Below, in pieces: positions 748 through 17,575 of a DNA stretch of 64,000 nucleotides (within the stretch, counting starts at the first letter, position 1; every line of letters starts with the position of its first letter). The translations under genes and the position numbers were made by a program. Source of the stretch: an uncultured bacterium (GTDB taxonomy: Bacteria > Acidobacteriota > Thermoanaerobaculia > Multivoradales > JAHEKO01); contig CAJQNK010000005.1 of NCBI GenBank assembly GCA_905479655.1, forward strand, positions 9,544 through 73,543, read 5' to 3'. The notes under the pieces are model-generated. The model searched no databases. It saw nothing but the letters and a program-made list of their open reading frames with translations, and was not told where the DNA came from.

Positions 748-762
748 ACCTCCCCCTCGGGC

Positions 763-1992: not shown

Positions 1993-2128
1993 GGTGGGGA
2001 GTATCGCACCCGGAGAGGCCGCTCTTCCGCCGAGGGGGGCGTCGGCCGCCTTGTCCAAGGCGAGCGGCCCGCCGGGGCCGGCCGGTTAGAATGAAAGGAA
2101 CCAGGGGTGCGGAAGCGGATCGTTATCG
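1993..2128. promoter_or_regulatory. Divergent intergenic region between the GT4 gene (-) and the NRPS operon (+). A -10-like hexamer TAGAAT lies at 2087-2092 in a locally AT-richer stretch.
   Basis: The sequence ggttagaatgaaaggaacc lies about 35 nt upstream of the NRPS ATG. No clean -35 is present. This is a tentative call. Confidence 0.2.
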
Positions 2129-5100
2129 ATGACCAGTGCGGATCAGCGCGCCGCGCGCCTCGAGGAAGCCATCCGGCGGAAGCGCGCCACGGCTCGCTCC
2201 GGCGCCACGGCACTGCCGGCTCGGCCGGCGGACGAGCCCGCGCGTCTCGGCGAGATGCAACGCGGCCTCTGGCTGCTGCATCAGCTCGATCCCGCTTCGG
2301 CGGCCTACAACCTGGCGAGCGCGCATCGTCTCCGCGGTCCCGTCGACGCCGGTGAGCTCGAGAGGGCGCTGAACCAGGTCGTGGCCCGCCACCGTCTCCT
2401 CCGTTCGACCTACCGGGCGCGGGGCGACGAGGTCCTGCAGGTCGTCGGGCCCGCGGTTCGCCTGGCGATCGGGCGGCGGGAGGTCGAGGCAGGGGAGGCG
2501 ACGACGGCGGCGGTCCGCGCGGCCCGGGGGCCCTTCGATCTCGGGTCCGGGCCGCTGGTCCGGATGACCCTGATCGCGGAGGCGGGCGGCGCCGACGACC
2601 TCCTCCTCCTGGTGCTGCCCCACATCCTGTGCGACCAGCGCTCCCTCGGAGTGCTGTGGCGCGAGCTCGCGGAGGCCTACGCCGGCCGTCTGTCGGGGAG
2701 CCCGGAGCCCTTCCAGTACGACGACTGGGTCCACCGATCCCGGGGCGACGAGACGAAGCGCCGCGAGGACCTGGCGTTCTGGCGACGGCGACTGGACCCG
2801 TTGCCCGAGGCCCTGGAGCTGCCCTTCGAGACCCCGGCCGGGCCCTCGGGTGACGAGCCCGGCGCGCGCGGCCGCCTGCTGAGCGGGGAGCTCGACCCGG
2901 ACCTCCTCGAGGGCGTGCGTCACCTGGCCGCGGCCGTCGGAGCCAGCCCGTTCGCGGTCTACGCCTTCGCCTTCCGGCTGCTCCTCGACCGCCTGACGGA
3001 CGGCCGGCCGGTCGCCTTCGCGACGCCGGCCTCCACCCGCTCCCATCCCGCGACCGCGAACCTGGTCGGCTACTTCCTGAACCCGGTCGTGGTGCCGGCG
3101 AAGATCGACGAGGCGGTCCCGGCCCGGGCCGCGATCCGCGAGTTCGGCCGCGAGGTCCGCGAGCTCCTGGGCCGAGCCTCGGTGCCCTTCCAGACGGTGG
3201 CGGAGGAGCTCTCGTCCCGGCGTCATGGCGACCGGCACCCGATCCTCCGGAACCCGATCTTCCAGGCGCTGTTCGTCCACCGCGTGGCCGCCGCCCCGCC
3301 GAGCCTGGGGCGCACCCGGCTCGAGCCGGTCGAGCTGGACCTGGGGGAGTCGAAGTTCGACCTGACCCTGTTCGTGACGGAGGGCGAGCGCCGCCTGGAG
3401 GTCTCGCTGGAGTGCCGGACCGACCGGGTGCCCGAGCGCCGGCAGCGGGAGCTCCTGGGCTACTACGCGACGTTGCTGGAGGGCCTGCTCGAGGAGCCGG
3501 AACGGCCCACGGCCGAGCTCTCGATGCTGCGGCCGGAGGAGGCGGGCCGCCTCGCCGCCTGGTCCAAAGGGGACATGCTGCCGGCGGAGGAGGCTCCGCT
3601 CCTGCCGGCGCGGATCCTCGAACGGGCGCTGCGCTCTCCCGACTCGACGGCCGTGGAGTGGGGCGGCCGCCGCCGCAGCTACGCCGAGGTCTCCGAGGCG
3701 GCCGGCTCGATCGCCGGGCGACTCGCGGGAGCCGGCGCGCGACCCGGCGACCGCGTCGGCCTGTTCCTCGGGCGCTCCGACCGGATGGTCTCCGCCGTCC
3801 TCGGCATCCACCGGGCCGGCGCCGCCTACGTGCCCCTCGATCCGGCCTATCCGGCGGAGAGGAACCGCCGGGTGCTGGAGGACGCCGACGTGTCGGCTGT
3901 CGTCACCGACCGAGAGGCGCGCGACCGTCTGCCGGCGGGGTCGTGGCCGGTCGTCGACCTCGGTGACGCCCCGCCGGCCCCGGCCGAGCTCCCCGCGTCG
4001 CCGGAGCTCCGGCCGGAGATGCCCGCCTACGTCCTCTACACGTCGGGCTCCACCGGGCGACCCAAGGGCGTCGTCGTCAGCCACGGCAACCTGGCGACGT
4101 CGACCGCGGCGCGCCCCGCGGCCTACGACCTCGCCCCGGAGCGCTTCCTGCTGGTGCCGAGCGTCGCGTTCGACAGCTCGGTCGCCGGCCTGTTCTGGAC
4201 GCTGGCGACGGGGGGGACCCTCGTCGTCCCCACCGAGGACGAGGCGGCCGACCCCCGCCGGCTGGCCGACCTCGTGGCGCGAGCCGGGGTCACCGGGCTG
4301 TTGTGCGTCCCGTCGCTCTACCGGCAGCTCCTGCGCTCGGGCGCGGACCGGCTGCGCTCCCTCGCGTTCGCGATCGTGGCCGGCGAGACCTGTCCGCCCC
4401 GGCTCGTGGCCGAGCACTTCCGAGCCCTGCCCGCGACTCGCCTGTTCAACGAGTACGGCCCCACGGAGGCGACCGTGTGGGCGACTGTGGACGAGCTCAC
4501 CGTCGACGACTCGGGCGCGGCGGTGCCGATCGGCCGGCCCATCCCGGGTGTGTGGGTCGAGGTGCTCGACCGCGGCGGACGACCGGCGCCGCCGGGGATC
4601 CCGGGCGAGGCGCGCATCGCCGGTCCGACGGTCGCCCGGGGTTACCACCGGAGTCCCGAGCTGTCGGCGGAGCGCTTCGTCGAGCTGGGGGACGGCCGTC
4701 GCGCCTACCGGACGGGCGACCGGATGGCCTGGGCCGACGACGGGAGCCTGCGCTTCCTGGGTCGCCGGGACGAGCAGATCAAGCTCCGCGGCTTCCGGAT
4801 CGAGCCCGGCGAGGTGGAGACCGCGCTCCTGGGGCTCCCCGGGGTCGAGGAGGCGGCCGTCGTCGCCCGGACGCCGAGGGGCGGGTCGCCGGATCTCGCC
4901 GATCCCGCGCTCCAGCTCGTGGCCTTCGTCCGTGGGGGCGCCGCGCCGCCGGACTGGCGGGGGCAGCTGGCCTCCTCGCTGCCCGCGCACATGGTCCCGA
5001 GCCGTCTGGTCGAGCTCCCCGAGCTGCCGCTCCTGCCCAACGGCAAGGTCGACCGGCGGCGGCTGCGCGAGCTCCCCCTCGAGGCCGAGACGGCCGCGGG

Positions 5101-6211
5101 GAGCGGTGGGGATCCGGAGCGGATCCTCGGCCAACACGAGCAGGCTCTGCTCTCCCTCTGGGAGGGCCTCCTGGGGCGGACGGGTCTCGGGCTCACCGAC
5201 AACTTCTTCGAGCACGGTGCGCACTCGCTGCTGATGGTGGAGGCGCTGCGGGCCATCGAGCGCGACTTCGGCGTCAGCCTGGCGGCCTCGGACCTGTTCG
5301 AGTGCCCCACCGTGGAGGGCTTGGTCCGCCGGATCGACTCCCGGATCGATTCCCGGGTCGACTCGGGGGGCGGGCCGGCGGCGGCGCCCTACCACCACCT
5401 CTTCCCGATCCAGCCCTCGGGGGGCGGCGCGCCGCTGGTGTTCGCGCTGCCGCACTTCTTCACGGCGATGCTCGCGGAGCGCTTTCGGGGGGAGCGGCCG
5501 GTCTACGGTCTGCGCGGGGTGGGGCTGCGGCCGGAGGGCAACCTGGGGCGGTGGCGGACGATGCGCGCCCTGGCCGAGGAGCTGGTCGAGGAGATCCAGC
5601 GCCGGTTCCCCGGCGAGGCGTGCATCCTGGCCGGGTACTCGTTCGGGGCGTCCATGGCCCTGGAGGCGGTGCGGGTCCTGGAGGAGCGGGGCCTGCCGGT
5701 GCGGCGCCTCGTCCTGATCGCCCCCATGCCGTTGAACCTCGTCTCCTTCGGCCCCCTCCGGCTCCAGCTCGACGGTCTCCGCCGGCCGGGCGAGGAGCTG
5801 TCCGCGCGCGAGGCGCTGGGTCTCTTCGCCCGCGCCAACCATCCGCTGACGGGCCGGCCGTACCGGCGCGCGTGGCGCTGGCTGGCCGTCGAGCCCCGCC
5901 GCCGGCTCCTGCAGCTCGTCGGGCGGCTGCGGCGTCGGGCCGGGTTGCCGTTGGGGCCGCGGATCCTGCACGCTGACGTCCGAGTCGATCGCTTCCGCCT
6001 GCACGCCCGTTATCGACCGGGTGTCGTCCACACGCCGACCCTCTTCTTCAACGCGCGCGAGCCCGGCACCGACGCCGCGGCGACCTGGCGACCCTGCTTC
6101 GGAGGTCCGCTGACCGTCCACCCGATCTCCGACCCCCACCTCGATGAGGCCTCGGTAGAGGCCGCTCGCCGCGAGATCCTCCGTCACCTGACCGATCCGG
6201 AGGGCTCCTGA
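2129..6211 (+). CDS. Non-ribosomal peptide synthetase, single module C-A-PCP-TE
   Basis: The C domain carries a variant active site, PHILCDQRS, in place of HHxxxDG. The A-domain motifs are LYTSGSTGRPKG (A3), NEYGPTE (A5), YRTGD (A7), GRRDEQIKLRGFRIEPGEVE (A8) and LPNGKVDRR (A10). The PCP motif is FFEHGAHSLL. The TE carries GYSFGAS (GxSxG). Confidence 0.9.
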   Translation: MTSADQRAARLEEAIRRKRATARSGATALPARPADEPARLGEMQRGLWLLHQLDPASAAYNLASAHRLRGPVDAGELERALNQVVARHRLLRSTYRARGDEVLQVVGPAVRLAIGRREVEAGEATTAAVRAARGPFDLGSGPLVRMTLIAEAGGADDLLLLVLPHILCDQRSLGVLWRELAEAYAGRLSGSPEPFQYDDWVHRSRGDETKRREDLAFWRRRLDPLPEALELPFETPAGPSGDEPGARGRLLSGELDPDLLEGVRHLAAAVGASPFAVYAFAFRLLLDRLTDGRPVAFATPASTRSHPATANLVGYFLNPVVVPAKIDEAVPARAAIREFGREVRELLGRASVPFQTVAEELSSRRHGDRHPILRNPIFQALFVHRVAAAPPSLGRTRLEPVELDLGESKFDLTLFVTEGERRLEVSLECRTDRVPERRQRELLGYYATLLEGLLEEPERPTAELSMLRPEEAGRLAAWSKGDMLPAEEAPLLPARILERALRSPDSTAVEWGGRRRSYAEVSEAAGSIAGRLAGAGARPGDRVGLFLGRSDRMVSAVLGIHRAGAAYVPLDPAYPAERNRRVLEDADVSAVVTDREARDRLPAGSWPVVDLGDAPPAPAELPASPELRPEMPAYVLYTSGSTGRPKGVVVSHGNLATSTAARPAAYDLAPERFLLVPSVAFDSSVAGLFWTLATGGTLVVPTEDEAADPRRLADLVARAGVTGLLCVPSLYRQLLRSGADRLRSLAFAIVAGETCPPRLVAEHFRALPATRLFNEYGPTEATVWATVDELTVDDSGAAVPIGRPIPGVWVEVLDRGGRPAPPGIPGEARIAGPTVARGYHRSPELSAERFVELGDGRRAYRTGDRMAWADDGSLRFLGRRDEQIKLRGFRIEPGEVETALLGLPGVEEAAVVARTPRGGSPDLADPALQLVAFVRGGAAPPDWRGQLASSLPAHMVPSRLVELPELPLLPNGKVDRRRLRELPLEAETAAGSGGDPERILGQHEQALLSLWEGLLGRTGLGLTDNFFEHGAHSLLMVEALRAIERDFGVSLAASDLFECPTVEGLVRRIDSRIDSRVDSGGGPAAAPYHHLFPIQPSGGGAPLVFALPHFFTAMLAERFRGERPVYGLRGVGLRPEGNLGRWRTMRALAEELVEEIQRRFPGEACILAGYSFGASMALEAVRVLEERGLPVRRLVLIAPMPLNLVSFGPLRLQLDGLRRPGEELSAREALGLFARANHPLTGRPYRRAWRWLAVEPRRRLLQLVGRLRRRAGLPLGPRILHADVRVDRFRLHARYRPGVVHTPTLFFNAREPGTDAAATWRPCFGGPLTVHPISDPHLDEASVEAARREILRHLTDPEGS
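5330..5365 (+). repeat. 12-bp tandem repeat x3 encoding RIDS-RIDS-RVDS in the PCP-TE linker of the NRPS
   Basis: The sequence reads cggatcgactcc cggatcgattcc cgggtcgactcg. Confidence 0.5.
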
Positions 6212-6212
6212 G

Positions 6213-7007
6213 ATGCGGACGGAGGTGGAACCGAGGCGGATTCCGGAGCGGAGCCGCGCGCTCCTCGACGGCCTGGCCGCGCGCATCCGGCCCGACGACC
6301 CGAGGCTGGAGGCGTGGTACCCGCGGTACGTCCGACAGCACAGGAGACGCCTGGCCGTGGACCTGGCGCTCGTGGAGAGGCACGTGAGGCTCGGCGCACG
6401 GATCCTGGAGGTGGGGGCGATCCCGCCGCTGACGACCGCGGCGCTGGCAGAGCTGGGCTACGCGGTTCGCGGCGTCGACCTCGCGCCGGCCCGCTTCGGA
6501 CGGGCGATCGCCGAGCTCGGGCTCGACGTCGCCGAGTGCGACATCGAGAGGCAGGCGCTCCCCTTCGCCGACGAGAGCTTCGATGCCGTCCTGTTCAACG
6601 AGCTCCTCGAGCACTTGCGGATCGACCCGCTGTTCACCCTGCGGGAGGTGCGCCGGGTACTGGTGCCCGGCGGGCTCCTGCTCCTCTCCACCCCGAACCT
6701 GCGCTCCTTCCGCGGCCTGCGCAACCTCCTGCTGCACAACCAGGGGCACGCCGCCTCGGCGGGCGTCTACGAGCAGTTCGAGAAGCTCGAGACCCTGGGG
6801 CACATGGGCCACGTGCGCGAGTACACGACCCGCGAGGTGACCGAGCTCCTCGAGCGTCTCGGTTACCGGGTCGACGTCGTCGTCTACCGCGGCGGTCACG
6901 GCCGGGGTCCGGTCGGAGTCGCGGAGCGGCTGGCGCCCTCGCTCCGCCCGTTCTTCTCGCTGATCGCGAGCCGGCTGAGCCGCTCGCCCGAGGACGGGGA
7001 CCGATGA
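6213..7007 (+). CDS. Class I SAM-dependent methyltransferase
   Basis: The Rossmann glycine-rich motif is ILEVGAIPP, with an acidic loop at VRGVDLAP. The gene starts 2 nt after the NRPS stop. Confidence 0.75.
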   Translation: MRTEVEPRRIPERSRALLDGLAARIRPDDPRLEAWYPRYVRQHRRRLAVDLALVERHVRLGARILEVGAIPPLTTAALAELGYAVRGVDLAPARFGRAIAELGLDVAECDIERQALPFADESFDAVLFNELLEHLRIDPLFTLREVRRVLVPGGLLLLSTPNLRSFRGLRNLLLHNQGHAASAGVYEQFEKLETLGHMGHVREYTTREVTELLERLGYRVDVVVYRGGHGRGPVGVAERLAPSLRPFFSLIASRLSRSPEDGDR

Positions 7008-7945
7008 CCGGCTCCCGGCTGAGCTCCGCGATCGACGGTCGGATCTTCGTCGTCGGCGTTCCCCGCTCCGGCACCACCCTGGTGCAGGCCCTCCTGGCGG
7101 CGCACGGTGCGGTGGCGTCGTTCACCGAGAGCCACCTCTTCGATCGCCACTTCGTCTTCCTGCCCGGCCTCGGCCGGCCGATCCTGACGCGGGACCCCGG
7201 GCCCCGGCTGCGCGAGTTCCTGGCCGAGAACGGCGAGGAGGCTCCGGCGGCCGCCGAGGAGTTCGCCGCCGCGGGCGGCGGCCTACGTGGATGGCGACCC
7301 CTGTTGCCGTTGCGCACCGGCTCGGTGGCGCGACGGCTTCTGCGGGTTCTGGACGAGCTGACCCTGCGCCGCGGGCGTGCCGTGTGGGTCGAGAAGACGC
7401 CGCGCCATCTGCGCTACGTTCCCTTCCTCGAGGGGGTGGCGGGACCCGCAGGGGGCGCCCGTTTCGTGCACGTGGTCCGGGAGGGGCTGGAGACCGTCGC
7501 CTCCCTGCGCGCGGCCTCGCGGGGCTGGGAGCGTCCCTACGATCTGGCGGCCTGCGTGCGACGATGGAACCGGGACATCGCCTTCTCCGCCCGCCGTCTC
7601 GCCTCGCCGAGCGACCACTTCGTCGTCTACGAGGAGCTCGCGGCCCGGCCGGAGGCGGTCCTCCGGACGCTCCTCGGCGAGCTGGGCCTCGTCTGGGAGC
7701 CGGAGATCCTCGAGCGCTACCCGACGGCCTCCGAGCGTCTCGTCACCGGGCAGGAGAGGGGGTGGAAGGGCGACGTGGGACGCGCCATCCGTCCCGCCCC
7801 GTCGTCGTCCTCGACGCTGAGCGAGGAGGAGCGTCGACGCGCGACCCGGTCGCTGCGCCGCGAGCCCTACGAGCGGATCCGTGGGCGGCCGCGGTCGCCG
7901 GTCGAGGCGACTCCGGCGCCGGGGAAGGAGGCAGGGGTCCGATGA
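7004..7945 (+). CDS. Sulfotransferase-family protein
   Basis: The 5-prime-PSB-like loop is VVGVPRSGTTL, and a 3-prime-PB-like region is RFVHVVREGLETVAS. There is an ATGA overlap with the methyltransferase stop. Confidence 0.7.
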   Translation: MTGSRLSSAIDGRIFVVGVPRSGTTLVQALLAAHGAVASFTESHLFDRHFVFLPGLGRPILTRDPGPRLREFLAENGEEAPAAAEEFAAAGGGLRGWRPLLPLRTGSVARRLLRVLDELTLRRGRAVWVEKTPRHLRYVPFLEGVAGPAGGARFVHVVREGLETVASLRAASRGWERPYDLAACVRRWNRDIAFSARRLASPSDHFVVYEELAARPEAVLRTLLGELGLVWEPEILERYPTASERLVTGQERGWKGDVGRAIRPAPSSSSTLSEEERRRATRSLRREPYERIRGRPRSPVEATPAPGKEAGVR

Positions 7946-8736
7946 GCGACACTCCGCACGTCTCCGTGGTGGTGCCGTTCTACGGCAGCGAGCGCCACAT
8001 CGCCGAGTGCATCGACTCGCTGCTGACCCAGGAGGACGTGGGCGGCCCCTTCGAGGTCGTCTTCGTCGACAACGGCTCGCAGGACGGATCCGCCGCCATC
8101 GTCTCCCGCTACCCCGAGCTCGTGGTCGTGCGCGAGACCACGCCGGGAGCCTACGCGGCGCGCAACGCGGGCGTGCGCGTGGCGCGCGCGCCGCTCATCG
8201 CGTTCACCGACGCCGACTGCGCCGTCGGCCGGCGGTGGCTGCGCTCGATCCGCGAGGGGATGGAGGATCCCGGAAGCGCGATCCTGCTGGGCACCTGTCT
8301 CTACCCGTACGAGGCCTCGTTGCCGCTGCGCCTCCTCGGAGCCTACGAGAACGCGAAGAGCCGGTATGTCCTCGAGCGCTGTTCGCCGGCCTACCGCTTC
8401 GCCTACGCCAACAACATGGCCGTGCGGGCCTCGGTGTTCGAGGAGGTCGGCCCGTTCCGCGAATGGCGGCGGGCCGGGGACACGGAGCTGGTGCACCGGC
8501 TGACGTCCAGGCGGCCGGACCTCCGGGTCGTCTACCGGCCCTCGATGAGGATCATCCACCGGGAGTTCCTGAACGCCCGTCACCGGCTGGGGCGGCTCAC
8601 CGTGTACACGAAGACCAACGAGAAGATCGGTACCTTCCGGGAGCTCGGCCTTCGGCAACGCTTCGGCGTCCTCGTCACCCTGCTCCGCAGCCTCCTGGCG
8701 GGCGGCCTGAAGCGGGTCAAGCGCTCGGCGTTGTAG
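7942..8736 (+). CDS. Glycosyltransferase family 2
   Basis: The N-terminus VSVVVPFYGSERHIAECIDSLL is typical of GT2 enzymes. The DxD region is FTDAD. There is an ATGA overlap with the sulfotransferase stop. Confidence 0.8.
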   Translation: MSDTPHVSVVVPFYGSERHIAECIDSLLTQEDVGGPFEVVFVDNGSQDGSAAIVSRYPELVVVRETTPGAYAARNAGVRVARAPLIAFTDADCAVGRRWLRSIREGMEDPGSAILLGTCLYPYEASLPLRLLGAYENAKSRYVLERCSPAYRFAYANNMAVRASVFEEVGPFREWRRAGDTELVHRLTSRRPDLRVVYRPSMRIIHREFLNARHRLGRLTVYTKTNEKIGTFRELGLRQRFGVLVTLLRSLLAGGLKRVKRSAL

Positions 8737-8845: not shown

Positions 8846-11800
8846 CTACTCCGCCCTACCCTCGACATCCCCGAGGATCCGGTCCTCCGCGACCCGCGCC
8901 AGGTCGCCCAGGATCGGGTGGGAGAACATCGTCTCCAGCGGCAGGTCGATGTCGAACTCGCGGCACAGGCCGAGCATCACCTCCATCGCCGCCAGCGAGG
9001 TGCCCCCGAGCCCGAAGAAGTCGTCGGCCATGCCGATGGGCTCCACGGTCAGCTCCCGGCCCCAGGCGCCGGCCAGGTACTCCGCCACCGGGCCCTCGGG
9101 GGCGCGGTACGGCCGGCGGTCGGTCGGGCCGGAGGTCGAAAGCGACAGGGCTGCCTCGTCGACCTTGCCGCTCCGGGTCAGGGGGATCGAGTCGACCCGC
9201 CGCAGCCGGGCGGGCACGACGGGCGCCGGGAGGAGCCGGCCGAGCCGCCGCCGGAGCTCGTCCTCGTCGAGCTCCCGAGAGGCGACGTAGAAGGCGTCCA
9301 GGGTCGTGCGGTCGAGGTCGTCGCCGCTCCGCTCCTCGTCGTAGCCGATCACCGCGAGGTTCTCCCGCACCTCCTCCTCGTCGATGTCGTCGTCGAGCTC
9401 CGCCAGCGCCTCCTCCCGGGTCTTATGGCCCAGACGGACGTCCCAGCTGTACGGCAGGGCGTAGTTGTGGAAGCCCCGCTCCCTCTTGTGGACCCAGATG
9501 CCCGTGTCGTTGATCCGGCAGTTGGTCGACCGGCCCGTGTCCGCCGGGCGCACCCAGGGGACCCTCTCCCGCAGGGTGGCGTAGAGCTCGTCCATGCCGA
9601 CGTCGCAGTAGCGGTAGAAGTCGACGAACCGGATCTCCTCGAAGATCCGATCGTCGCGGAAGATCTCGACGTCCAGGGAGCGGGAGACCTCGTCGGGCAG
9701 CCGGTGGTAGACCTTGCGGGCGGCCAGCACCGCGGCGTCGATCTCGTCGGCGCCGCGCCGGCCGTCGCGGAACATCTCCTCGGTCAGCCGGGTCTCGAAC
9801 ATCTGGCCGCGGGAGAGGCCGGTGACGATGATCGGGATGCCGAGCTGCCGCGCCCGGTGCACGCTCAGGGTGTAGATCGTCTTGAAGCAACCGTTGCAGA
9901 CGTTGGAGAAGCGCGCGAGGCTGTCGCGGAAGATGGCGTTCATGGCCGGTGTCGTGGCGAGCTCCACGGGCACGTCGAGCTCCGAGGTGACGCGGCGGAT
10001 GTTCCGCTTCGCGCTCTCCGAGATGAAGCCGTTGTCCAGCGTGAAGGCGTAGACCGAGAGGCCCATCTCGACCAGTCGGCACAGGGCGTAGGTGCTGTCC
10101 TTGCCGCCGCTGTAGAGCATGAGGCAGTCGACCTCCGGGCGGTGCTCCCGGGCGGACTCCTCGAACAGCGACCGCAGGTCGTCCAGGGTCCGGAAGTACG
10201 CCTGCGCGTGGTCCTTGATCGTGTCGTAGGAGCGGCAGACGGCGCACACGCCCTCCCCGTCGAGGCGCGCCCGCGGGTGGTTCGAGGGCAGGGCGCAGCG
10301 GAGGCACCGGCGGATCGCCTCGCCGGTCTCTGCGGGCGGCGCCGCCCGCCGCCGGTGGGAGATCACGGCGCACTGCTCGACACCGGGGAGCGAGAGCAGG
10401 GCGGCCTCGACCTCTCCGGGCTCGACGCGGAAGCCCGAGATCTTGAGCTGGCGGTCGAGCCGCCCCAGGAACTCGAGCTCGCCCCGCTCGGTCATCCGCA
10501 CCCGGTCGCCGGTGCGGTAGCGCAGCGCTCCCGGCGTCGTCGGGTCGGGGAGGAAGCGCTCGGCGGTGAGCGCCTCGAGGCCGTGGTAGCCGCGGGCGAG
10601 GCCGAAGCGGGAGATCCACAGCTCGCCCGGCACCCCCGTCGGCACCGGAGCGAGCGCCTCGTTCAGGACCGCGACCCGCACGTGGTCGGCGGGGAGCCCG
10701 ATGGGCACGCTGGCGGCCGTGTCCCGGGCCGGGTCGTAGCGGTGCGCCACGCAGCCGACCACCGCCTCGGTCGGGCCGTACTCGTTGTGGAGCTCGAGAC
10801 GGTGGTGGAGCTGCTCGCTGACGGCCGCGGCCAGGGAGGTCTTGAGATCCTCGCCGCCCACGACCATGCGGCGGATCCGCGATCCCTCGAGGCCGATCCG
10901 TCGCAGCAGCGAGAGGTGGGAGGGGGTGAGCTTGACGAGATCGACCGCGTTGTCGCGCGCCACGTCCAGGACGGCGGTGTCGGCGGCGTCGTCGGGCTCC
11001 GGGTAGACCACCAGGGTGCCGCCCGTCGTCAGCGGCAGGAGGAGGCTCGTGACGGTGAGGTCGAACGCCGGCGAGGTGAAGAGGGGAAACACGAGACGGT
11101 CGCCGCGCACGTACCGGCGGGAGGCCCACTCCAGGTAGTCCGCGAGCCCGCCGTGCTCGACGAGGACCCCCTTCGGCTGTCCCGTCGAGCCGGAGGTGTA
11201 GATCAGGTAGGCGAGGTCGCGCAGGTTCGGGGTCGGCCGGTCGAACGGGAGGGTCCGCCCGGCCGCGACGAGGTCGGCGATGGAGACGACCTCCACGCCC
11301 GGCGGTGCGGCCGAGGCCTCCGCGCCGGGGCCGGCTAGCAGGAGGCGGGCGCCGGAGTCCGCGAGGGTCCGGTCTCTCCGCGCCGCCGGCACGGGGTGGC
11401 CCAGGGGCACGAAGGCGGCCCGCGCCGCGAGGGCCCCCAGCACGGCGACGACCGTGGAGATGGACCGCCTGCCGGCGATCGCCACCCGGTCCCCCGGCTG
11501 GACGCCCCGCGCCACGAGGGCCGCGGCCAGAGCCCGGGAGCGGAGCCGGAGCTCGCCGAACGACACCTCCCGCGCCCCCTCCCGCAGAGCGATCCGGTCG
11601 GGCTCCGCCGCGGCCCGCTCCGCGAAACGCTCGACCACCGACCGGGTCGGCAACGGCCCGGAGTCCGAGGCGTCGAGCCTGGCCAGGACCCGCCGGTCGG
11701 AGCCCGCCAGGAGGTCGACCTCGGCCACCGGTCGGTCGGGGTCGTCGAGGAGGGCCTCGAGGAGCCTCTCGAAGTGCTCGAGGGCTCGTCGTTGGAGGGG

Positions 11801-13078
11801 CTCCGGCAGCGCGCGGTCGTTGAAGTCGAAGTGCAGCGTGGTGCGGCCGGAGCCCGCGAAGTCGTGGACCTGGAGCCGGAGGGCGTGCACGCTGTCGCCG
11901 TGGCCCGGGTGGATCCACTCCACCTCGGTGGGAAGTCCGGCGAAGTCGCCGAAGGCCCCCGGGAAGTAGTTCAGCACCACGTTGCCGGCCGCCGCGCCGG
12001 AGGGGGCGCTCGTGCCGGGGAGCGCGTGGCGGAGGAGCCCCTTGGCCTCCTCCAGGCACTTCGCGCCGAGCGAGCGCAGGGTCTCCCCGGCCTCGATCGT
12101 GACGACGAACGGGAACATCTCGATGAACAGCCCGAGAGCCTCCTTGGCCTCCGCGCCGGGGCGTCCGGCCACCGGGGTGTCGAAGCCCAGCTCGGAGGCG
12201 CCGCTGACCCGGTGGAGCCAGCTCACGAGGAGGGCCGCGAAGAGCGCGAACCGCGACAGCTCCGGGGAGAGACTCAGGAGTCCCTCGCCCGCGGCGAGCC
12301 GTTCCACCGCGCGAGATCGCTCCTCGTCCAGCTCGAGGGTCCGACGGCTGCTCCGGGTGTCGGTGCCCTGCCTGCCGGCGGGCCCGGCCCCACGGCCGTA
12401 GAGCGAGACCCGGGAGGCGCGGGGTCGCCGGGCTTCCCAATGTTCCCGGGCCTCCCAGTGTTCCTGGGACTCGGCACGACCCCGAGGATCGGCCGCCAGG
12501 GCCGCCGCGGTCGGGTAGTACGCGGGCAGCGGCGCCGCGTCGCCGGGCTCGCCCCTCCGCAGCGCCTCGTACTCGACGCCGACCCGCCGGTAGAGGAGCT
12601 GGGTCGACCAGGCGTCGGTCACCAGGTGGTGCTGCCCCAGGTACCAGCCCGTGCGCCCCGGACCGAGCCGGAGCAGGACGCTGTCGACGAGGTCCCCGTC
12701 GAGGGGCAGAGGGCGGGCGCAGCGCTCGAGCGACCAGCGTCGCAACGCCGTCCGCGGGTCGGGCCGCGCGCCGAGGTCGACGACCGTGGTCGCGGGGGCG
12801 TGGGGCGCCAGGATCAGCCGGTCGCCACCCTCGGTGGCCACGACCCGGGTCCTGAGGGCGTCGCTGGCGTCGGCGACACGGCGCCACGCCTCCTGGAAGA
12901 GGTCGGCGCGGATCGCCCCCGGGAACAGGAAGGCGAAGGCCATCGTGTAGAGCGGACTCTCCGGGTGCAGTCGCTGGCCGAGCCAGATCGGTCTCTGGGC
13001 GTGGGTGAGCCCGAGCTCCCCCCCGTGAACCCGCGTCGCTCCCGGCGGGGAGACGGGTCGCTCCTGCCGGGTCGTCAA
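8846..13078 (-). CDS. NRPS module C-A-PCP. The A domain is interrupted between A8 and A10 by a roughly 300-aa PP-loop ATPase (AANH superfamily) domain that resembles TtcA/TtuA.
   Basis: The C domain has LGQHHLVTDAWS. The A domain has LIYTSGSTGQPKG, NEYGPTE, YRTGDRV and FLGRLDRQLKISGFRVEPGEVE. The insert follows, with CLRCALPSN...CAVCRSYD, LYSGGKDSTYAL, NVCNGCFK and STNCRI. The A domain resumes with LTRSGKVD (A10). The PCP motif is FFGLGGTSL. Confidence 0.85.
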   Translation of the reverse strand: MTTRQERPVSPPGATRVHGGELGLTHAQRPIWLGQRLHPESPLYTMAFAFLFPGAIRADLFQEAWRRVADASDALRTRVVATEGGDRLILAPHAPATTVVDLGARPDPRTALRRWSLERCARPLPLDGDLVDSVLLRLGPGRTGWYLGQHHLVTDAWSTQLLYRRVGVEYEALRRGEPGDAAPLPAYYPTAAALAADPRGRAESQEHWEAREHWEARRPRASRVSLYGRGAGPAGRQGTDTRSSRRTLELDEERSRAVERLAAGEGLLSLSPELSRFALFAALLVSWLHRVSGASELGFDTPVAGRPGAEAKEALGLFIEMFPFVVTIEAGETLRSLGAKCLEEAKGLLRHALPGTSAPSGAAAGNVVLNYFPGAFGDFAGLPTEVEWIHPGHGDSVHALRLQVHDFAGSGRTTLHFDFNDRALPEPLQRRALEHFERLLEALLDDPDRPVAEVDLLAGSDRRVLARLDASDSGPLPTRSVVERFAERAAAEPDRIALREGAREVSFGELRLRSRALAAALVARGVQPGDRVAIAGRRSISTVVAVLGALAARAAFVPLGHPVPAARRDRTLADSGARLLLAGPGAEASAAPPGVEVVSIADLVAAGRTLPFDRPTPNLRDLAYLIYTSGSTGQPKGVLVEHGGLADYLEWASRRYVRGDRLVFPLFTSPAFDLTVTSLLLPLTTGGTLVVYPEPDDAADTAVLDVARDNAVDLVKLTPSHLSLLRRIGLEGSRIRRMVVGGEDLKTSLAAAVSEQLHHRLELHNEYGPTEAVVGCVAHRYDPARDTAASVPIGLPADHVRVAVLNEALAPVPTGVPGELWISRFGLARGYHGLEALTAERFLPDPTTPGALRYRTGDRVRMTERGELEFLGRLDRQLKISGFRVEPGEVEAALLSLPGVEQCAVISHRRRAAPPAETGEAIRRCLRCALPSNHPRARLDGEGVCAVCRSYDTIKDHAQAYFRTLDDLRSLFEESAREHRPEVDCLMLYSGGKDSTYALCRLVEMGLSVYAFTLDNGFISESAKRNIRRVTSELDVPVELATTPAMNAIFRDSLARFSNVCNGCFKTIYTLSVHRARQLGIPIIVTGLSRGQMFETRLTEEMFRDGRRGADEIDAAVLAARKVYHRLPDEVSRSLDVEIFRDDRIFEEIRFVDFYRYCDVGMDELYATLRERVPWVRPADTGRSTNCRINDTGIWVHKRERGFHNYALPYSWDVRLGHKTREEALAELDDDIDEEEVRENLAVIGYDEERSGDDLDRTTLDAFYVASRELDEDELRRRLGRLLPAPVVPARLRRVDSIPLTRSGKVDEAALSLSTSGPTDRRPYRAPEGPVAEYLAGAWGRELTVEPIGMADDFFGLGGTSLAAMEVMLGLCREFDIDLPLETMFSHPILGDLARVAEDRILGDVEGRAE

Positions 13079-13091
13079 GGGTCGGGATCTC

Positions 13092-13424
13092 TCATCGTCG
13101 GCGCGCCCGCAGCACGAAGTCGGCGAGGGCCACGGCCGTGCGGAAGTTCTCGACCACGAAGTCCGCGGGCCGGATCTCGATGTCGAACTCCTCCGCGGCG
13201 AAGGTGCCGAGCCGCAGGGCGGCGACCGAATCGAGGAGGTCGGAGAGCAGGTCGTCCTCGCGCCCCACCGTCGTCCCCGAGGTCACCAGCTCGTCGCGGA
13301 CGAAGGCGAGGATCCGCCGTTCGACCTCCGCCGTTCCCGGATCCGCCGTTCCCGGATCGGGCGTCCCCGGGTCGGAGGTTGCCGGAGCGGGCGTCCCCGG
13401 ATCGGCCTTCATGTCAGTGGGCAT
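13092..13424 (-). CDS. Standalone peptidyl/acyl carrier protein
   Basis: The phosphopantetheine-site-like motif is LLDSVAALRL. The N-terminus holds low-complexity DPGT repeats. An alternative start is the ATG at 13412. Confidence 0.6.
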   Translation of the reverse strand: MPTDMKADPGTPAPATSDPGTPDPGTADPGTAEVERRILAFVRDELVTSGTTVGREDDLLSDLLDSVAALRLGTFAAEEFDIEIRPADFVVENFRTAVALADFVLRARRR

Positions 13425-14997
13425 GATGGGTCTCCTCGGGGAGGAGGCGGAAGCGCAGGGCGGTGCGGTCCACCTTCCCGGTGGGCGTTCTCGGCAGGGA
13501 GGGGAGGATCACGACCTCGGCCGGGACGGCGTAGGTCGGGAGGAGCCCGGCGAGGTCGTCCAGGATCTTCCGGGGAGAGGCCGCGGGGTCGTCCGTGACC
13601 ACCACCGCGTGGATCACGGAGCTCCCCTCGCCGTCCGGCAGGGCGATGGCGGCGGCCTCCTCGATCGGATCGAGGGAGCGCAGGGCTCTCTCGACGCCCT
13701 CGAGCTCGACGCGGTGACCCCTGACCTTGACCTGGAGGTCGGCCCGGGTCACGAAGGCGAGATTCCCGTCGTCGAGGCGGCGAACCCGGTCGCCGGTCCG
13801 GAAGTAGAGGTCGTCGAAGCCGCCGGCCGTCGGCCGCCGGACCAGCGCCCGACGGTTGGCCGCCGGGTCGCCCCAGTAGCCGGCCATGACGGTCGAGCCG
13901 CGGACCAGCAGCTCCCCGGTCTCCCCGTCCGGCAGCGGCTCCAGGTCGTCGCCCACGACGAGCGTGGCCGACGTCGAGCAGGCCGTGCCGATCGGCAGCG
14001 GCTCGGCGGGCTCGACCCCCTCCGGCAGGTGGTAGCGGGTGCAGACGTTGACCTCCGTCGAGCCGTACACGTGGCTGAACCGGGCCGCGGGGAGCTGGCG
14101 CCGGAGTCGCGCCAGGTGCTTCGCGGGGAACGTCTCGCCGGCGAAGAGCACCCAGCGCAGAGAGCTCAGGTCCCCATCCTCCAGGCCGCCGCGCAGGGAG
14201 AGGTGGACGAGGGCCGTGGGCACGGAGTACCAGACGGTGACGCGCTCCCGCTCGAGCAGGGCCGCGAGGGAGGCGGGCATCTTCAGCGTCGCGGGTGTCG
14301 GCACGACGGTCGCCGCCCCGGCGCGCGCGGCGGCGTAGAAGTCGAAGGTCGCGAAACAGGTGTGGTGCGAGGAGTGGTTGCTGAGGCGGTCGTCGGGCCG
14401 CAACGAGTACTCGTCCGCCGCCCAGTCGGCGAAGGCCAGCGCGCTGCGGTGGGTGTGGAGGATGAGCTTTGGGGTTCCGGTCGAGCCGGACGTGTGGAGG
14501 ATGTAAGCCGGGTCGAGGTCGATCGTCCCGGTCTCCGGCGGCCGGTCGGTGGCCTGCTCGGAGACCGACGACCACGGGATCGGGCGGAGAGGCAGGTCGT
14601 CCGCTTCCTCCAGGCCGACGACGCTGGAGATCTCCGGGCAACTCGCGAGCGTCTCCCGCACCGCGTCCCGCCGGCCGGGCTCGGTCACGAGATGCCGGGC
14701 GCCGGTGGCGCGCAGGATGCGCACGATCTGGTCGACCGGCGAGCCCGGGTCGATCGGCACCAGGGCGCCGCCCGAGGCGAGGGCGCCGTGGAAGGCGACG
14801 GGCACGTCGAGACCCTTGCCGAGCAGGACCGCCACGCGGTCCCGGGGTTCGAGACCGGCTCCGAGCAGCACCCGCGCCAGGCCGTGGCTCCGGCGGGCCA
14901 GCTCCCCGTAGCTCAGGGTCTCCCCGTCGCAGCGCACCGCCGGCGCCTCGGGACGGCGCATCGCCGCCTCGTCGACCAGGCGGCTCAGCAGGGTCAC
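13414..14997 (-). CDS. Standalone adenylation (AMP-binding) enzyme that loads a free-standing carrier protein
   Basis: Motifs are YILHTSGSTGTPK, YGSTE, YFRTGD, VKVRGHRVELEGVE and LPRTPTGKVDR. There is no C or PCP domain. Start assigned to GTG 14997, which forms a GTGA overlap with the upstream gene stop. Confidence 0.8.
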   Translation of the reverse strand: MTLLSRLVDEAAMRRPEAPAVRCDGETLSYGELARRSHGLARVLLGAGLEPRDRVAVLLGKGLDVPVAFHGALASGGALVPIDPGSPVDQIVRILRATGARHLVTEPGRRDAVRETLASCPEISSVVGLEEADDLPLRPIPWSSVSEQATDRPPETGTIDLDPAYILHTSGSTGTPKLILHTHRSALAFADWAADEYSLRPDDRLSNHSSHHTCFATFDFYAAARAGAATVVPTPATLKMPASLAALLERERVTVWYSVPTALVHLSLRGGLEDGDLSSLRWVLFAGETFPAKHLARLRRQLPAARFSHVYGSTEVNVCTRYHLPEGVEPAEPLPIGTACSTSATLVVGDDLEPLPDGETGELLVRGSTVMAGYWGDPAANRRALVRRPTAGGFDDLYFRTGDRVRRLDDGNLAFVTRADLQVKVRGHRVELEGVERALRSLDPIEEAAAIALPDGEGSSVIHAVVVTDDPAASPRKILDDLAGLLPTYAVPAEVVILPSLPRTPTGKVDRTALRFRLLPEETHHAH

Positions 14998-16211
14998 GGG
15001 ATCACCTTCTGCACGGCCGGAGGCAGGAGCTCGCGCAGGGGCACGTCGACGTCGAAGCCCCGCTCGACGACCCAGATGCCGGAGATCACCGCGAGTCCCA
15101 CGGCCGCTACGGGCAGGGCGATCCGCCGGTAGAGGCCCAGCCGGCGGACGAGGAAGAGCACGGGGAAGAGGACGATCGCGATCGCGGTCTGCCCCGCCTC
15201 CACGCCGAGGACGAAGGCGACCACGGAGAGGCCGAGGTGCTCGTCGAGCACGCCGAGTTGCACCAGCGAGCCGGCGAAGCCGAGCCCGTGGAACAGTCCG
15301 AGGACGAAGACGATCGCCAGGATCCGGCCCCGCGTCAGCGTCTTCCCGAGGGGAACCAGGAGGTGGATCGCAGCCAGTGTGATGGAGGCCGCGATCACCG
15401 TCTCCACGAGCGCCTCGGGGAGGCTCGCGAGGCCCAGCGCGGCTAGGAGGAGCGCCACCAGGTGGGCCGCGACCAGGGTGGCGACGACGGTCACCACGTT
15501 GCGCAGCGCCGAGCCCAGGCCGTCGAGGGGTAGCCACCGGCCGTCCTCGCGGCGCAACGCCGCGGGCAGCAGCAGCGCGACCAGGAAGAAGATGTGGTCC
15601 AGGCCCAGGAGCATGTGCTCGGCCCCCAGGCGGACGAGCGCCAGGAAGCCGCTCAGGCGTCCGGAGGAGGTCAGGTCGAGCTCCTGTCGGCGCGAGCTCG
15701 GGCCGAACACCAGCGAGAACTGGTTCTCGTTGGCGAACGTCCCCGTCGCCCAGTTGTGCTCGACGAGCAGGAAGCCCCGGTGGCTGGGCTCCTCGTCGAG
15801 CAGCACCGAGTACTCGAAGGTCAGGGTGCCGGGGACGCCGTCGAGCCCCGGGAGCTCGAACGGCAGTTGCACGAAGCCGCCCCGCGCGTTCAGGAGGTGA
15901 TGCGGCCCGAAGTCGATCTCGAGCGGGCCGCGCGGGCCGGTGATCGTGACGTGGCTCCGGTAGTACCCCTGCAAGAAGTCGATCCGCTCGTCGAGGTTCT
16001 CGGCCGTGATCCCGTCCTCGGTGCCGGCGATTCCCAGGCCGTGGTTGAGATCGGCCAGCGCGATCTCGAAGCGCCCGGCGACCGAGTCCTCGTAGATCTG
16101 AAGGTAGAGGTAGCTGTCGCCCAGGGTGTGCGCCCGGGCCCCCGCCGTGCCCAGCAGCCCGAGGGCCAGCAGCAGAAGGCCGCGCGCGGCCCTCGGGAAG
16201 AGCCGGGTCAT
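14994..16211 (-). CDS. HupE/UreJ_2-family membrane protein (metal-transporter-like). It has a signal peptide and an N-terminal periplasmic domain.
   Basis: The signal peptide is MTRLFPRAARGLLLLALGLLGTAGARA. The conserved HupE/UreJ motifs are LGLDHIFFLVALL and LGLFHGLGFAGS. A possible upstream start lies at 16271; it overlaps the ACAD stop as ATGA and adds MIGTGMMRTGMIRTGIMRTG. Confidence 0.65.
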   Translation of the reverse strand: MTRLFPRAARGLLLLALGLLGTAGARAHTLGDSYLYLQIYEDSVAGRFEIALADLNHGLGIAGTEDGITAENLDERIDFLQGYYRSHVTITGPRGPLEIDFGPHHLLNARGGFVQLPFELPGLDGVPGTLTFEYSVLLDEEPSHRGFLLVEHNWATGTFANENQFSLVFGPSSRRQELDLTSSGRLSGFLALVRLGAEHMLLGLDHIFFLVALLLPAALRREDGRWLPLDGLGSALRNVVTVVATLVAAHLVALLLAALGLASLPEALVETVIAASITLAAIHLLVPLGKTLTRGRILAIVFVLGLFHGLGFAGSLVQLGVLDEHLGLSVVAFVLGVEAGQTAIAIVLFPVLFLVRRLGLYRRIALPVAAVGLAVISGIWVVERGFDVDVPLRELLPPAVQKVIP

Positions 16212-16280
16212 CCCGGTCCGCATGATCCCAGTCCGAATCATCCCAGTTCGCATCATCCCCGTCCCGATCATCCCAGTCCT
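16209..16280. repeat. Roughly 15-bp tandem repeat x about 5 (CATCATCCCNGTYCG-like). It spans the ACAD stop and the start region of the HupE-like gene.
   Basis: The sequence reads catcccggtccg catgatcccagtccg aatcatcccagttcg catcatccccgtcccg atcatcccagtcc. It encodes M-x-R-T-G repeats in the HupE-gene frame, each unit providing an in-frame ATG. Confidence 0.6.
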
Positions 16281-17413: not shown

Positions 17414-17575
17414 GGAGTCTCGATACGACAGCTGGGAGGGGGAGAAGAGGAAGAACGGCCCGGGACGGGCTGGGGGTCCATCCTAGCTCGCACGGGAGGG
17501 CAGCCTCCGGGGATCCTGGACGCGCGCGACCCGGCGGAGTGCCGCGCGACCGCCCTCTTCCGATAGCCTCGGACG

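Follow-up and report, generated by a model that had tools for sequence, protein, structure and literature searches.

An AMDH-type PP-loop domain in the asparagine-type adenylation domain of an NRPS from an uncultured acidobacterium

The window analysed here (a stretch of 64,000 nucleotides from an uncultured member of the Acidobacteriota) contains a nonribosomal peptide synthetase (NRPS) gene of 1410 aa with the architecture C-A(AMDH)-T (8846..13078, minus strand; ORF list, translation and Pfam). Pfam recognizes Condensation at aa 22-351, AMP-binding at aa 485-832, AMP-binding_C at aa 1241-1305 (profile positions 15-76 only), and PP-binding at aa 1334-1395. The condensation domain (aa ~22-460, 11699..13015, minus strand; PF00668) carries the active-site motif HHLVTDA at aa 150 and is followed by the core of the A domain with motifs A1-A8 (aa 485-891, 10406..11626, minus strand; Pfam and code extraction). 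At the other end of the protein is the thiolation (T) domain (8894..9079, minus strand; PF00550, E 2.5e-10), whose phosphopantetheine serine lies in the motif GGTSL (aa 1358-1362).

Upstream of the NRPS, and on the same strand, we found a candidate for a small acyl carrier protein (ACP) of 110 aa with the motif DLLDS (13092..13424), which gave a weak full-length PP-binding match (E 0.0066) and whose syntenic counterpart in Roseovarius has the annotation phosphopantetheine-binding. Next to it are a stand-alone adenylating enzyme, a FAAL-like acyl-AMP ligase (13414..15000; Pfam AMP-binding and AMP-binding_C) that is a separate gene in 51 of the 58 homologous loci, a HupE/UreJ_2 membrane protein of 421 aa inside the operon (14994..16259; PF13795, E 1e-30; present in 47/58 loci), and a member of the acyl-CoA dehydrogenase (ACAD) family (16268..17482; Pfam ACAD N, M, and C domains; 53/58 loci), likely an acyl-ACP desaturase. 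Considering the FAAL and ACP genes upstream, the condensation domain is probably a lipo-initiation domain that receives its acyl chain from the ACP. The cassette FAAL-ACP-ACAD-HupE-NRPS is present in at least 408 species genomes distributed among Acidobacteriota, Cyanobacteria, Bacteroidota, Verrucomicrobiota, Planctomycetota, Chloroflexota, Actinomycetota, and Proteobacteria.

On the other side there is a second NRPS of 1360 aa, C-A-T-TE (2129..6211, plus strand; Pfam), likely the acceptor module and release step; Roseovarius pelagicus has both modules fused in one protein of 2682 aa. The remaining genes of this part, identified by Pfam and frame plot, code for the C-terminus of a flippase (1-747, plus strand), a GT4 glycosyltransferase (763-2085, minus strand), a methyltransferase (6213-7007, plus strand), a sulfotransferase (~7007-7945, plus strand), and a GT2 glycosyltransferase (~7951-8736, plus strand). 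These tailoring and export genes of 1..8736 co-occur with the NRPS in 19-24 of the 58 loci. An all-against-all clustering of neighboring ORFs across the loci, blurred by antisense ORFs in this high-GC DNA, revealed no further gene shared by all of them, for example one for a donor of sulfur or ammonia.

The A domain of the first NRPS is interrupted. Its motifs A8 (GFRVEPGEVE, aa 882-891, 10406-10435, minus strand) and A10 (LTRSGKVD, aa 1300-1307, 9158-9181, minus strand), both located by motif search, are 418 aa apart, while the second NRPS (2129-6211), which is uninterrupted, takes ~85 aa from A8 to the end of AMP-binding_C. The difference is due to an insert of 340 aa (aa 913-1252, 9323..10342, minus strand) between A8 and A9/A10, with A1-A8 upstream, A9-A10 and then the T domain downstream in the same ORF, and the A-sub intact. 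In an AlphaFold2 model of aa 840-1325, a helix (H48-56) and a β-strand (E61-70) of the A-sub that follow A8 (aa 892-912, 10343..10405, minus strand; pLDDT 91-95) form the flank of the insertion hairpin on its N-terminal side, and the C-terminal part of the A-sub (aa 1253-1310, 9149..9322, minus strand; Pfam and AF2), with A9 (LPAPVVP) and A10, resumes with strand E419-427 (pLDDT 94). Both flanking strands are modelled with a pLDDT of at least 90. The insert itself was predicted as a well-folded independent domain (pLDDT 89.5). When aa 913-1252 were deleted in silico, a full-length AMP-binding_C match was restored (1-76/76, 45.9 bits).

A preliminary description of this DNA had placed the interruption between A8 and A10 from a spacing of about 400 aa and from motifs that we found without exception; Pfam, the spliced AMP-binding_C match, and the model agree with it and put the insert at the A8-A9 position. 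The same description had considered two fused genes or an assembly error, which we can discard given the contiguity of the insert architecture in 80 loci taken from 408 confirmed genome matches and in 150 representative proteins, the restored AMP-binding_C, the intact A-sub in the model, and the base composition. The GC content at third codon positions (GC3) of the insert is 0.98, compared with 0.94-0.97 in the flanks of the same gene, and its codon usage fits that of the host gene, so a recent foreign insertion was also ruled out.

The insert begins with a tetracysteine Zn-ribbon, CLRC…GVCAVC (C925, C928, C945, C948; 10235..10306, minus strand), a Zn site predicted by its match to the signature of the N-acetyl sugar amidotransferases (NASATs). 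Its cysteines, in CLRCALPSN (aa 925-933) and CAVCRSYD (aa 945-952), are invariant or nearly so among the homologs. The ATP-binding PP-loop SGGKDS follows (aa 990-995, 10094..10111, minus strand), also invariant among homologs, and then a CxxC…C triad. The CxxC (C1061 and C1064; 9887..9898, minus strand) is part of NVCNGCFK (aa 1059-1066) and is invariant in 121/121 sequences, and the third cysteine (C1187) is kept in 119 of 120 sequences within the block DTGRSTNC (9518..9541, minus strand; STNCRI at aa 1184-1189), which is common to the stand-alone relatives (as NSTNC). The invariance of the PP-loop and the conservation of the seven cysteines across phyla argue for an active domain.

The insert matched the NCBIfam model TIGR03573 over its full length (E 1.4e-30, profile positions 3-324/344), with a score of 107 bits that is below the curated cutoff of 203.2. 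NASAT was the best match both by HMM and by structure, and the overall fold of LpNASAT is reproduced in the insert. With this match, and with a search of cluster representatives at 50% identity that gave 582 relatives at E<=1e-30, a chance occurrence of the motif was ruled out. The similarity to NASATs (WbuX, WbpG, PseA; LpNASAT structure 8WEX) includes the tetracysteine motif, whose signature CXXCXn[GN]XCXXC binds Zn in LpNASAT (PMC10607449), as well as SGGKDS, and NASAT chemistry begins with the ATP-dependent activation of an amide oxygen. However, NASATs are free-standing enzymes that act on the N-acetyl groups of nucleotide sugars, depend on HisH/HisF-like ammonia partners, and produce amidines, and the CxxC…C triad was not present in a bona fide NASAT that we compared. 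The window genes scanned, the neighbors of the NRPS included, yielded no HisH/HisF gene. We therefore rejected membership in the NASAT family on account of the score below cutoff, the extra triad, and the missing ammonia partner.

The preliminary description had called this domain TtcA/TtuA-like, which is accurate only in part. The PP-loop of the AANH superfamily of ATP pyrophosphatases, the N-terminal Zn-ribbon, and the triad are all there, and the Fe-S-dependent PP-loop sulfur insertases (CtaC, TtuA/TtcA/NcsA, and [4Fe-4S] LarE) have, like the insert, a PP-loop followed by a similarly spaced CxxC…C. Nevertheless, no match to PF01171 was obtained at E<=10, the NCBIfam TtuA model reached only E 0.14, and membership in the TtcA/TtuA family was rejected for lack of HMM support. 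With its predicted structural Zn site and a substrate expected to be carrier-bound, the insert further resembles CtaC from closthioamide biosynthesis, which acts on PCP-bound peptides. CtaC peptides rebuilt from published primers (…SSGCKLG… and …LCFFCGR…) were unlike the RSTNC and NVCNGC blocks. The nitrile-forming PP-loop enzymes QueC/ToyM and ArtA (9leh) act on free small molecules, the Zn site of QueC is C-terminal, and they have neither an N-terminal ribbon of the NASAT type nor a helical C-terminal lobe, nor are they embedded in NRPSs.

A characterized relative is the AMDH domain of CysH, the cystobactamid NRPS of Cystobacter velatus. In a BLASTP comparison with the CysH sequence provided as source data of PMC7966384, the insert showed 49% identity and 66% positives over 336 aa (E 3e-125), a level at which specificity for dehydration or aminomutation cannot be read from the sequence; the AMDH domains of CysH and AlbIV (albicidin, Xanthomonas albilineans), although 69% identical as published, are themselves thought to differ in this respect (PMC7966384). 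The Zn-ribbon, SGGKDS, NVCNGCFK, and RSTNC are all common to the insert and CysH. By sequence, then, the insert is an AMDH-type domain, of the same family as those that interrupt the Asn-activating adenylation domains of CysH and AlbIV. Numerous homologs have been noted, all of them inside Asn-specific A domains (PMC7966384), and AlbIV, whose code is DLTKIGEVGK and whose AANH-type insertion has 342 aa, produces β-cyanoalanine (PMC12283262). The domain type was already known, and the window reveals no new class of interrupted A domain, contrary to the preliminary description, whose author was aware of no such interruption. What is new here is the fold assignment, the possible Fe-S site, and the use of the domain in line, within a FAAL-ACP-ACAD-HupE cassette for a lipopeptide. 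The AMDH literature never uses the term PP-loop, and SGGKD appears in it as "core region 1" of the domain; published work presents AMDH with no structure or template and leaves the mechanism unexplained (PMC7966384). The reviews consulted on interrupted A domains name no inserts other than M, KR, and Ox, and the AMDH type does not appear in them (PMC8341866, PMC11355689). These classical cases (M, KR, and Ox/MOx; TioS, KtzH, PchF) use the same A8-A9 hairpin site of the A-sub and follow the same logic, i.e., a tailoring domain that modifies an aminoacyl-S-T intermediate in cis, but the inserted fold and chemistry are different.

What is known of the chemistry comes from these homologs. It was proposed in 2014/2015 and demonstrated in 2021 by Groß et al., who found that AMDH turns T-bound L-Asn into β-cyano-L-alanine by dehydration or into isoasparagine by isomerization, with no sulfur donor (PMC7966384). 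A loss of 18 Da from CysH-bound Asn was seen only with the AMDH domain present, and deletion of the domain abolishes both cyanoalanine- and isoasparagine-linked products (PMC7966384). These results run against the thioamide, thioacid, or amidation chemistry that the preliminary description had suggested. The A domain of the window has the Stachelhaus code DLTKVGEVGK, of the asparagine type, and an Asn-type code was found in 72/74 loci and 133/133 representative homologous NRPSs, some of which carry the insert in module 2.

Considering this evidence, we assign a probability of about 0.7 to the insert being an AMDH domain that acts on tethered Asn, with dehydration to β-cyano-L-alanine expected to predominate. 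L-asparagine would be adenylated by the A domain and loaded on the downstream T domain, and the PP-loop domain, protruding from the A8-A9 β-hairpin, would modify the tethered residue in cis, an expectation that the preliminary description shared. ATP at the SGGKDS loop would activate the side-chain carboxamide oxygen, presumably by adenylation as in all AANH enzymes; phosphorylation was reportedly proposed for this activation by Cociancich et al. Elimination would then give the nitrile. The genes scanned, which cover the window outside a few stretches (~25.4-26.9 kb and 48.4-52.9 kb), yielded no β-hydroxylase of the CysJ/AlbVIII type (TauD/SyrP-type), so dehydration should predominate by analogy with ΔcysJ cystobactamid producers, isoasparagine being the alternative. 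The acyl-AMP ligase and ACP encoded upstream would provide a fatty acyl chain, in which the ACAD probably introduces a double bond, and the starter C domain would join this chain to the residue; the second NRPS would add one residue and release a lipodipeptide, which in this subfamily is probably methylated, sulfated, glycosylated, and flipped. We infer this outcome, the order of the steps, and the product, while the identity of the domain, the place of the insert, the Asn code, the conservation, and the synteny were observed directly.

The resemblance to CysH and AlbIV covers an insert of ~340 aa (38 kDa), an Asn-specific A domain followed by T, a Stachelhaus code of the AlbIV type, and the predicted action on T-bound Asn. 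However, the A-T modules CysH and AlbIV stand alone and feed into gyrase inhibitors rich in p-aminobenzoic acid (pABA) through a shuttle protein (CysB), while here the module is an in-line C-A-T with FAAL/ACP/ACAD priming and a C-A-T-TE after it, and neither pABA genes nor a CysJ-type hydroxylase appeared among the genes scanned. The in-line arrangement counts to some extent against the AMDH reading, since the timing relative to N-acylation may differ, and so does the methyltransferase, which recalls the CysQ/AMDH pair but comes here without a hydroxylase.

The domain could act instead as an asparaginyl α,β-aminomutase, and the lipopeptide would then contain isoasparagine and not cyanoalanine. 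CysH-AMDH carries out both reactions and still forms isoasparagine without the hydroxylase, at a lower level (PMC7966384), and the methyltransferase gene adjoins the NRPS as CysQ does beside CysH. On the other hand, efficient isomerization in cystobactamid biosynthesis comes after β-hydroxylation by CysJ, for which the window genes scanned provide no counterpart, and deletion of cysJ leads to more of the nitrile product (PMC7966384), so that we regard a predominant aminomutase as unlikely. An artifact or inert insert (an assembly chimera, fused genes, or a degenerate noncatalytic spacer) has practically no probability left, given the contiguity, invariant catalytic motifs, matching codon usage, and intact A-sub described above.

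The triad also counts against a nitrile-forming domain, being otherwise typical of Fe-S-dependent sulfur insertases and having no role assigned to it in making nitriles. A [4Fe-4S] sulfur insertase of the CtaC/TtuA/LarE type would convert the side-chain amide of Asn or the N-acyl backbone amide of the carrier-bound intermediate into a thioamide. The structures nearest to the insert after NASAT are the sulfur-inserting YcfA, TtuA, LarE, and NcsA, HMMER aligned C1061/C1064 with the CxxC of [4Fe-4S] LarE (8cnz), and D994/C1061/C1064/C1187 of the insert have a triad spacing similar to that of D77/C154/C157/C284 in CtaC (PMC6772006). CysH, moreover, purifies dark brown (PMC7966384). Yet the CysH domain, with the same triad, removes water in vitro from Asn and inserts no sulfur, no sulfur-containing linker is known from cystobactamids or albicidin, many carriers of the domain are aerobes (cyanobacteria among them), and the neighborhood of the cluster yielded no gene for a cysteine desulfurase, ThiS/MoaD, or rhodanese; together with the HMM results, this makes sulfur insertion very improbable. 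Even more improbable is a NASAT-like reaction in which ammonia attacks the activated amide to give an amidine, as in the conversion of N-acetyl to acetamidino groups by WbuX/WbpG/PseA. It would agree with the best HMM and structural match and with a tetracysteine motif of identical type, but the score is under the cutoff, no HisH/HisF-type partner was found adjoining the NRPS, and the characterized homolog makes nitrile or isoAsn and no amidine.

Returning to the AMDH reading, we tentatively suggest, with the odds somewhat against the proposal as a whole, that AMDH domains may be Zn-/Fe-S PP-loop enzymes of NASAT fold with a [4Fe-4S] cluster bound by the triad; the brown color of CysH would then be accounted for. 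Acting on the adenylated carboxamide as a Lewis acid, the free iron site could drive nitrile formation or aminomutation, and the FAAL-ACP-ACAD-HupE cassette would make β-cyanoalanine or isoAsn lipopeptides. If so, this would be a use of a TtuA/LarE-type site other than in sulfur transfer, and the cassette, whose product is predicted to carry a nitrile or isoasparagine, would represent a previously unseen, phylum-spanning class of lipopeptides. The combination of NASAT fold, tetracysteine Zn site, and [4Fe-4S]-type triad could turn the AMDH mechanism into a matter of point mutants and metal analyses. The stand-alone relatives of the insert sit in cassettes with a carrier protein, an adenylating enzyme, and AsnB, which fits a carrier-bound carboxamide as the family substrate and suggests a wider family of carrier-dependent carboxamide-modifying enzymes.

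The NRPS gene at 8846-13078 (minus strand), in a window of high-GC DNA (ca. 72%), codes for 1,410 residues with Pfam matches to a condensation domain (residues 22-351), AMP-binding (485-832), the distal part only of AMP-binding_C (1241-1305; profile positions 15-76), and PP-binding (1334-1395). Motifs A8 (GFRVEPGEVE, 882-891) and A10 (LTRSGKVD, 1300-1307) are 418 aa apart (equivalent distance in the uninterrupted NRPS of the window, ca. 85 aa), a spacing far wider than normal, as the preliminary description had pointed out. The other motifs that it quoted were also found in place, namely, the Zn-ribbon CLRC…CAVC (925-948), SGGKDS (990-995), NVCNGCFK (1059-1066), and STNC (1184-1187). Once the insert (residues 913-1252) was spliced out in silico, the AMP-binding_C match was again full length (1-76 of 76, 45.9 bits). 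An AlphaFold model of residues 840-1325 (mean pLDDT, 86.6) shows canonical A-sub elements on either side of the insert, with both flanking strands at a pLDDT of ≥90 and low-confidence linkers joining them to the insert, which is predicted, as proposed earlier, to be an independent domain within A-sub. Since the spliced AMP-binding_C is full length and A-sub is modeled intact, an assembly error or a fusion of two genes is not borne out. The GC3 of the insert matches that of the remainder of the gene. The interrupted A domain is real, and we dismiss chance or artifact as explanations. A minor low-complexity feature of the gene is a tandem EHWEAR-EHWEAR duplication in the condensation domain (residues ca. 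205-216, about 12431-12466).

Pfam gave marginal matches only, to QueC and ThiI, for the insert, whereas the NCBIfam model TIGR03573 (WbuX, N-acetyl sugar amidotransferase [NASAT]) matched it over its full length (E value of 1.4e-30) with 107 bits, under the model cutoff of 203 bits. At the N terminus of the insert, CLRC…GVCAVC conforms to the tetracysteine signature of NASATs, CXXCXn[GN]XCXXC, which in the Legionella NASAT is zinc-binding (PMC10607449). The insert differs from a bona fide NASAT in carrying three extra cysteines (C1061, C1064, and C1187), invariant or nearly so across 120 protein homologs and 41 genomic loci. CxxC…C triads of this kind bind [4Fe-4S] in TtuA, LarE, and CtaC. 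The CxxC of the insert aligns with that of the described cluster-binding motif of [4Fe-4S] LarE (PMC9283937), and the triad spacing is similar to that of CtaC, an Fe-S-dependent thioamide synthetase acting on PCP-bound peptides (PMC6772006). The closest sequence matches in the PDB copy searched were LarE (8cnz) and NASAT (8wex), each at an E value of about 1e-7, and the top fold match shared 18% identity; neither sequence nor fold searches found an AMDH structure there.

AMDH is the name given by Groß et al. (2021) to a homologous 38-kDa domain of CysH, from the cystobactamid pathway (PMC7966384). Interruptions of this type had been thought undescribed in the preliminary description, incorrectly, since AMDH in CysH and AlbIV was already published (PMC7966384, PMC12283262). 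Our keyword searches of the literature on interrupted A domains gave no account of a PP-loop insert, and the type is missing from the reviews PMC8341866 and PMC11355689; the AMDH papers surfaced through specificity code strings. Aligned to the CysH AMDH (sequence taken from the source data of PMC7966384), the insert is 49% identical over 336 residues (E value of 3e-125), and both have the Zn-ribbon, SGGKDS, NVCNGCFK, and RSTNC. This similarity places the insert in the AMDH domain family. The homolog list of Groß et al. names Leptolyngbya, Pricia, Lewinella, and Arenibacter (PMC7966384), all of them also recovered in our searches. A change of −18 Da on CysH-bound L-Asn requires AMDH, its deletion abolishes all cyanoalanine- and isoasparagine-linked products, and the outcome hinges on earlier β-hydroxylation by CysJ (PMC7966384). 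The same authors gave the mechanism as unknown, with no structure or template, and the sole motif that they sought in the domain was the radical-SAM CxxCxxxC, while purified CysH was dark brown (PMC7966384). What we add is a predicted fold and cofactor assignment: a NASAT fold with a tetracysteine Zn site, a PP-loop, and the CxxC…C triad. The putative [4Fe-4S]-type site offers an explanation for the brown color of CysH, and the assignment supplies concrete AMDH residues for mutation.

For the A domain with the insert, the Stachelhaus code is DLTKVGEVGK, which we take to be Asn-type by comparison with the canonical Asn code DLTKLGEVGK. Asn-type codes were found in all 133 representative proteins, at every module position, and in 72 of the 74 loci that were full length, with the remaining two gapped at those alignment positions. 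The code of AlbIV (albicidin) is DLTKIGEVGK, and the residue incorporated is β-cyano-alanine, according to a 2025 survey (PMC12283262). By analogy, the insert most likely converts T-bound L-Asn to β-cyano-L-alanine: it would activate the side-chain carboxamide in an ATP-dependent manner, and elimination would follow. Isoasparagine is the alternative outcome, but a CysJ/AlbVIII-type hydroxylase was not found among the window genes scanned, which favors dehydration by analogy with ΔcysJ strains (PMC7966384). Thioamide, thioacid, or amidation chemistry, as suggested in the preliminary description, is unsupported, because a close homolog with the same triad removes water without a sulfur donor. 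For the same reason, a thioamidation domain, a candidate raised by the triad and by the likeness to LarE and CtaC, is unlikely.

The insert also has a large family of stand-alone relatives, not reported before, which are encoded in cassettes with carrier proteins and adenylating enzymes. There are at least 1,235 of these proteins with the same layout of Zn-ribbon, PP-loop, and CxxC…STNC, labeled by PGAP as 7-cyano-7-deazaguanine synthase or hypothetical. Compared by hhalign, the insert matches them with an E value of 3e-44 and the triad aligned, versus 6.7e-21 for NASAT. In the five loci examined (8001-8972 of L082, from Bacillus thuringiensis plasmid NZ_CP009349, and 8001-ca. 9010 in each of L085 to L088), the gene is always flanked by a small carrier protein and an adenylating enzyme, with an AsnB-type amidotransferase nearby in four. 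This context fits a carrier-bound carboxamide as the substrate of the family. In Streptomyces sp. NBC_01216 (plasmid NZ_CP108680, positions 11938-14118 of locus L083), the domain (42% identity) is fused N-terminal to a condensation domain, directly after an A-T protein with no interruption and a code, DARHASLMTK, other than Asn-type; genes for asnB, a racemase, and a tyrosine 2,3-aminomutase are near. Going by this code, the fusion breaks the Asn-only pattern.

Homologous A domains with the same insert, a search for which had been proposed, proved widespread. When each species was represented by a single genome, at least 408 genomes encoded a relative. Among clusters at 90% identity, the insert had 611 matches, of which the top 120 were fragments with the AMP-binding_C or PP-binding part. 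Representatives at 50% identity numbered 2,775, 1,284, and 582 at E values of ≤1e-3, ≤1e-10, and ≤1e-30, and the best 150 were nearly all NRPSs of 1.35 to 3.1 kaa with the insert mostly near residue 900. The matches listed include Acidobacteriota, Actinomycetota, Planctomycetota, Verrucomicrobiota, Chloroflexota, Cyanobacteria, Bacteroidota, Gemmatimonadota, and Proteobacteria, the nearest among them being Acidobacteriota MAGs (up to 82%). Cultured bacteria that carry the cluster include Roseovarius pelagicus HL-MP18 (on plasmid NZ_CP106737.1), Neolewinella xylanilytica DSM 29526, Leptolyngbya cf. ectocarpi LEGE 11479, Adonisia turfae CCMR0081, and Verrucomicrobiae bacterium DG1235. Among the domain orders seen were C-A(ins)-T-C, A-T-C-A(ins)-T, and C-A-T-C-A(ins)-T; in R. 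pelagicus, both NRPSs are fused as C-A(ins)-T-C-A-T-TE, adjoining a flippase within a polysaccharide locus. The Roseovarius plasmid also encodes a bona fide NASAT, together with HisF- and HisH-like partners (1953-5301 of locus L084), ca. 12 kb from the AMDH-containing NRPS, so that a single glycan/lipopeptide island has members of both branches of the fold family.

Upstream of the interrupted NRPS, on the same (minus) strand, are a candidate small ACP (13092-13424), an acyl-AMP ligase (13414-ca. 15000), a HupE/UreJ_2 family membrane protein of 421 aa (14994-16259), and an acyl-CoA dehydrogenase (ACAD; 16268-17482). Among 58 homologous loci with sufficient flank, from several phyla, ACAD is present in 53, the ligase in 51, and HupE in 47. 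This very widely distributed in-line, putative lipopeptide cassette with a HupE/UreJ partner is also new; the HupE/UreJ_2 protein, whose gene lies within the NRPS operon and separates ACAD from the ligase, could be a metal link or have a role in export. Convergent with the interrupted NRPS is a second one, C-A-T-TE (2129-6211, plus strand), surrounded by tailoring genes (1-8736) for a flippase C terminus, GT4, a SAM methyltransferase, a sulfotransferase, and GT2. This set, present in 19 to 24 of the 58 related loci, mainly Acidobacteriota, resembles the logic of mycobacterial glycopeptidolipid loci. Positions 17567-64000, the rest of the window, are housekeeping and consistent with a Gram-negative, high-GC organism, probably a member of the Acidobacteriota: a 5′-3′ exonuclease, an FG-GAP protein, an RND efflux pair, SAH hydrolase, an ArsR-methyltransferase fusion, the glutamate synthase large subunit, a TonB-dependent receptor, an M14 peptidase-like giant protein, two DUF885 proteins, and an ECF sigma factor. 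As minor observations, the small ACP has an N-terminal low-complexity DPGT(P/A) repeat, and the second NRPS has the code DSALIAEVWK and PHILCDQ in place of the condensation motif HHxxxDG, the first His being replaced by Pro.
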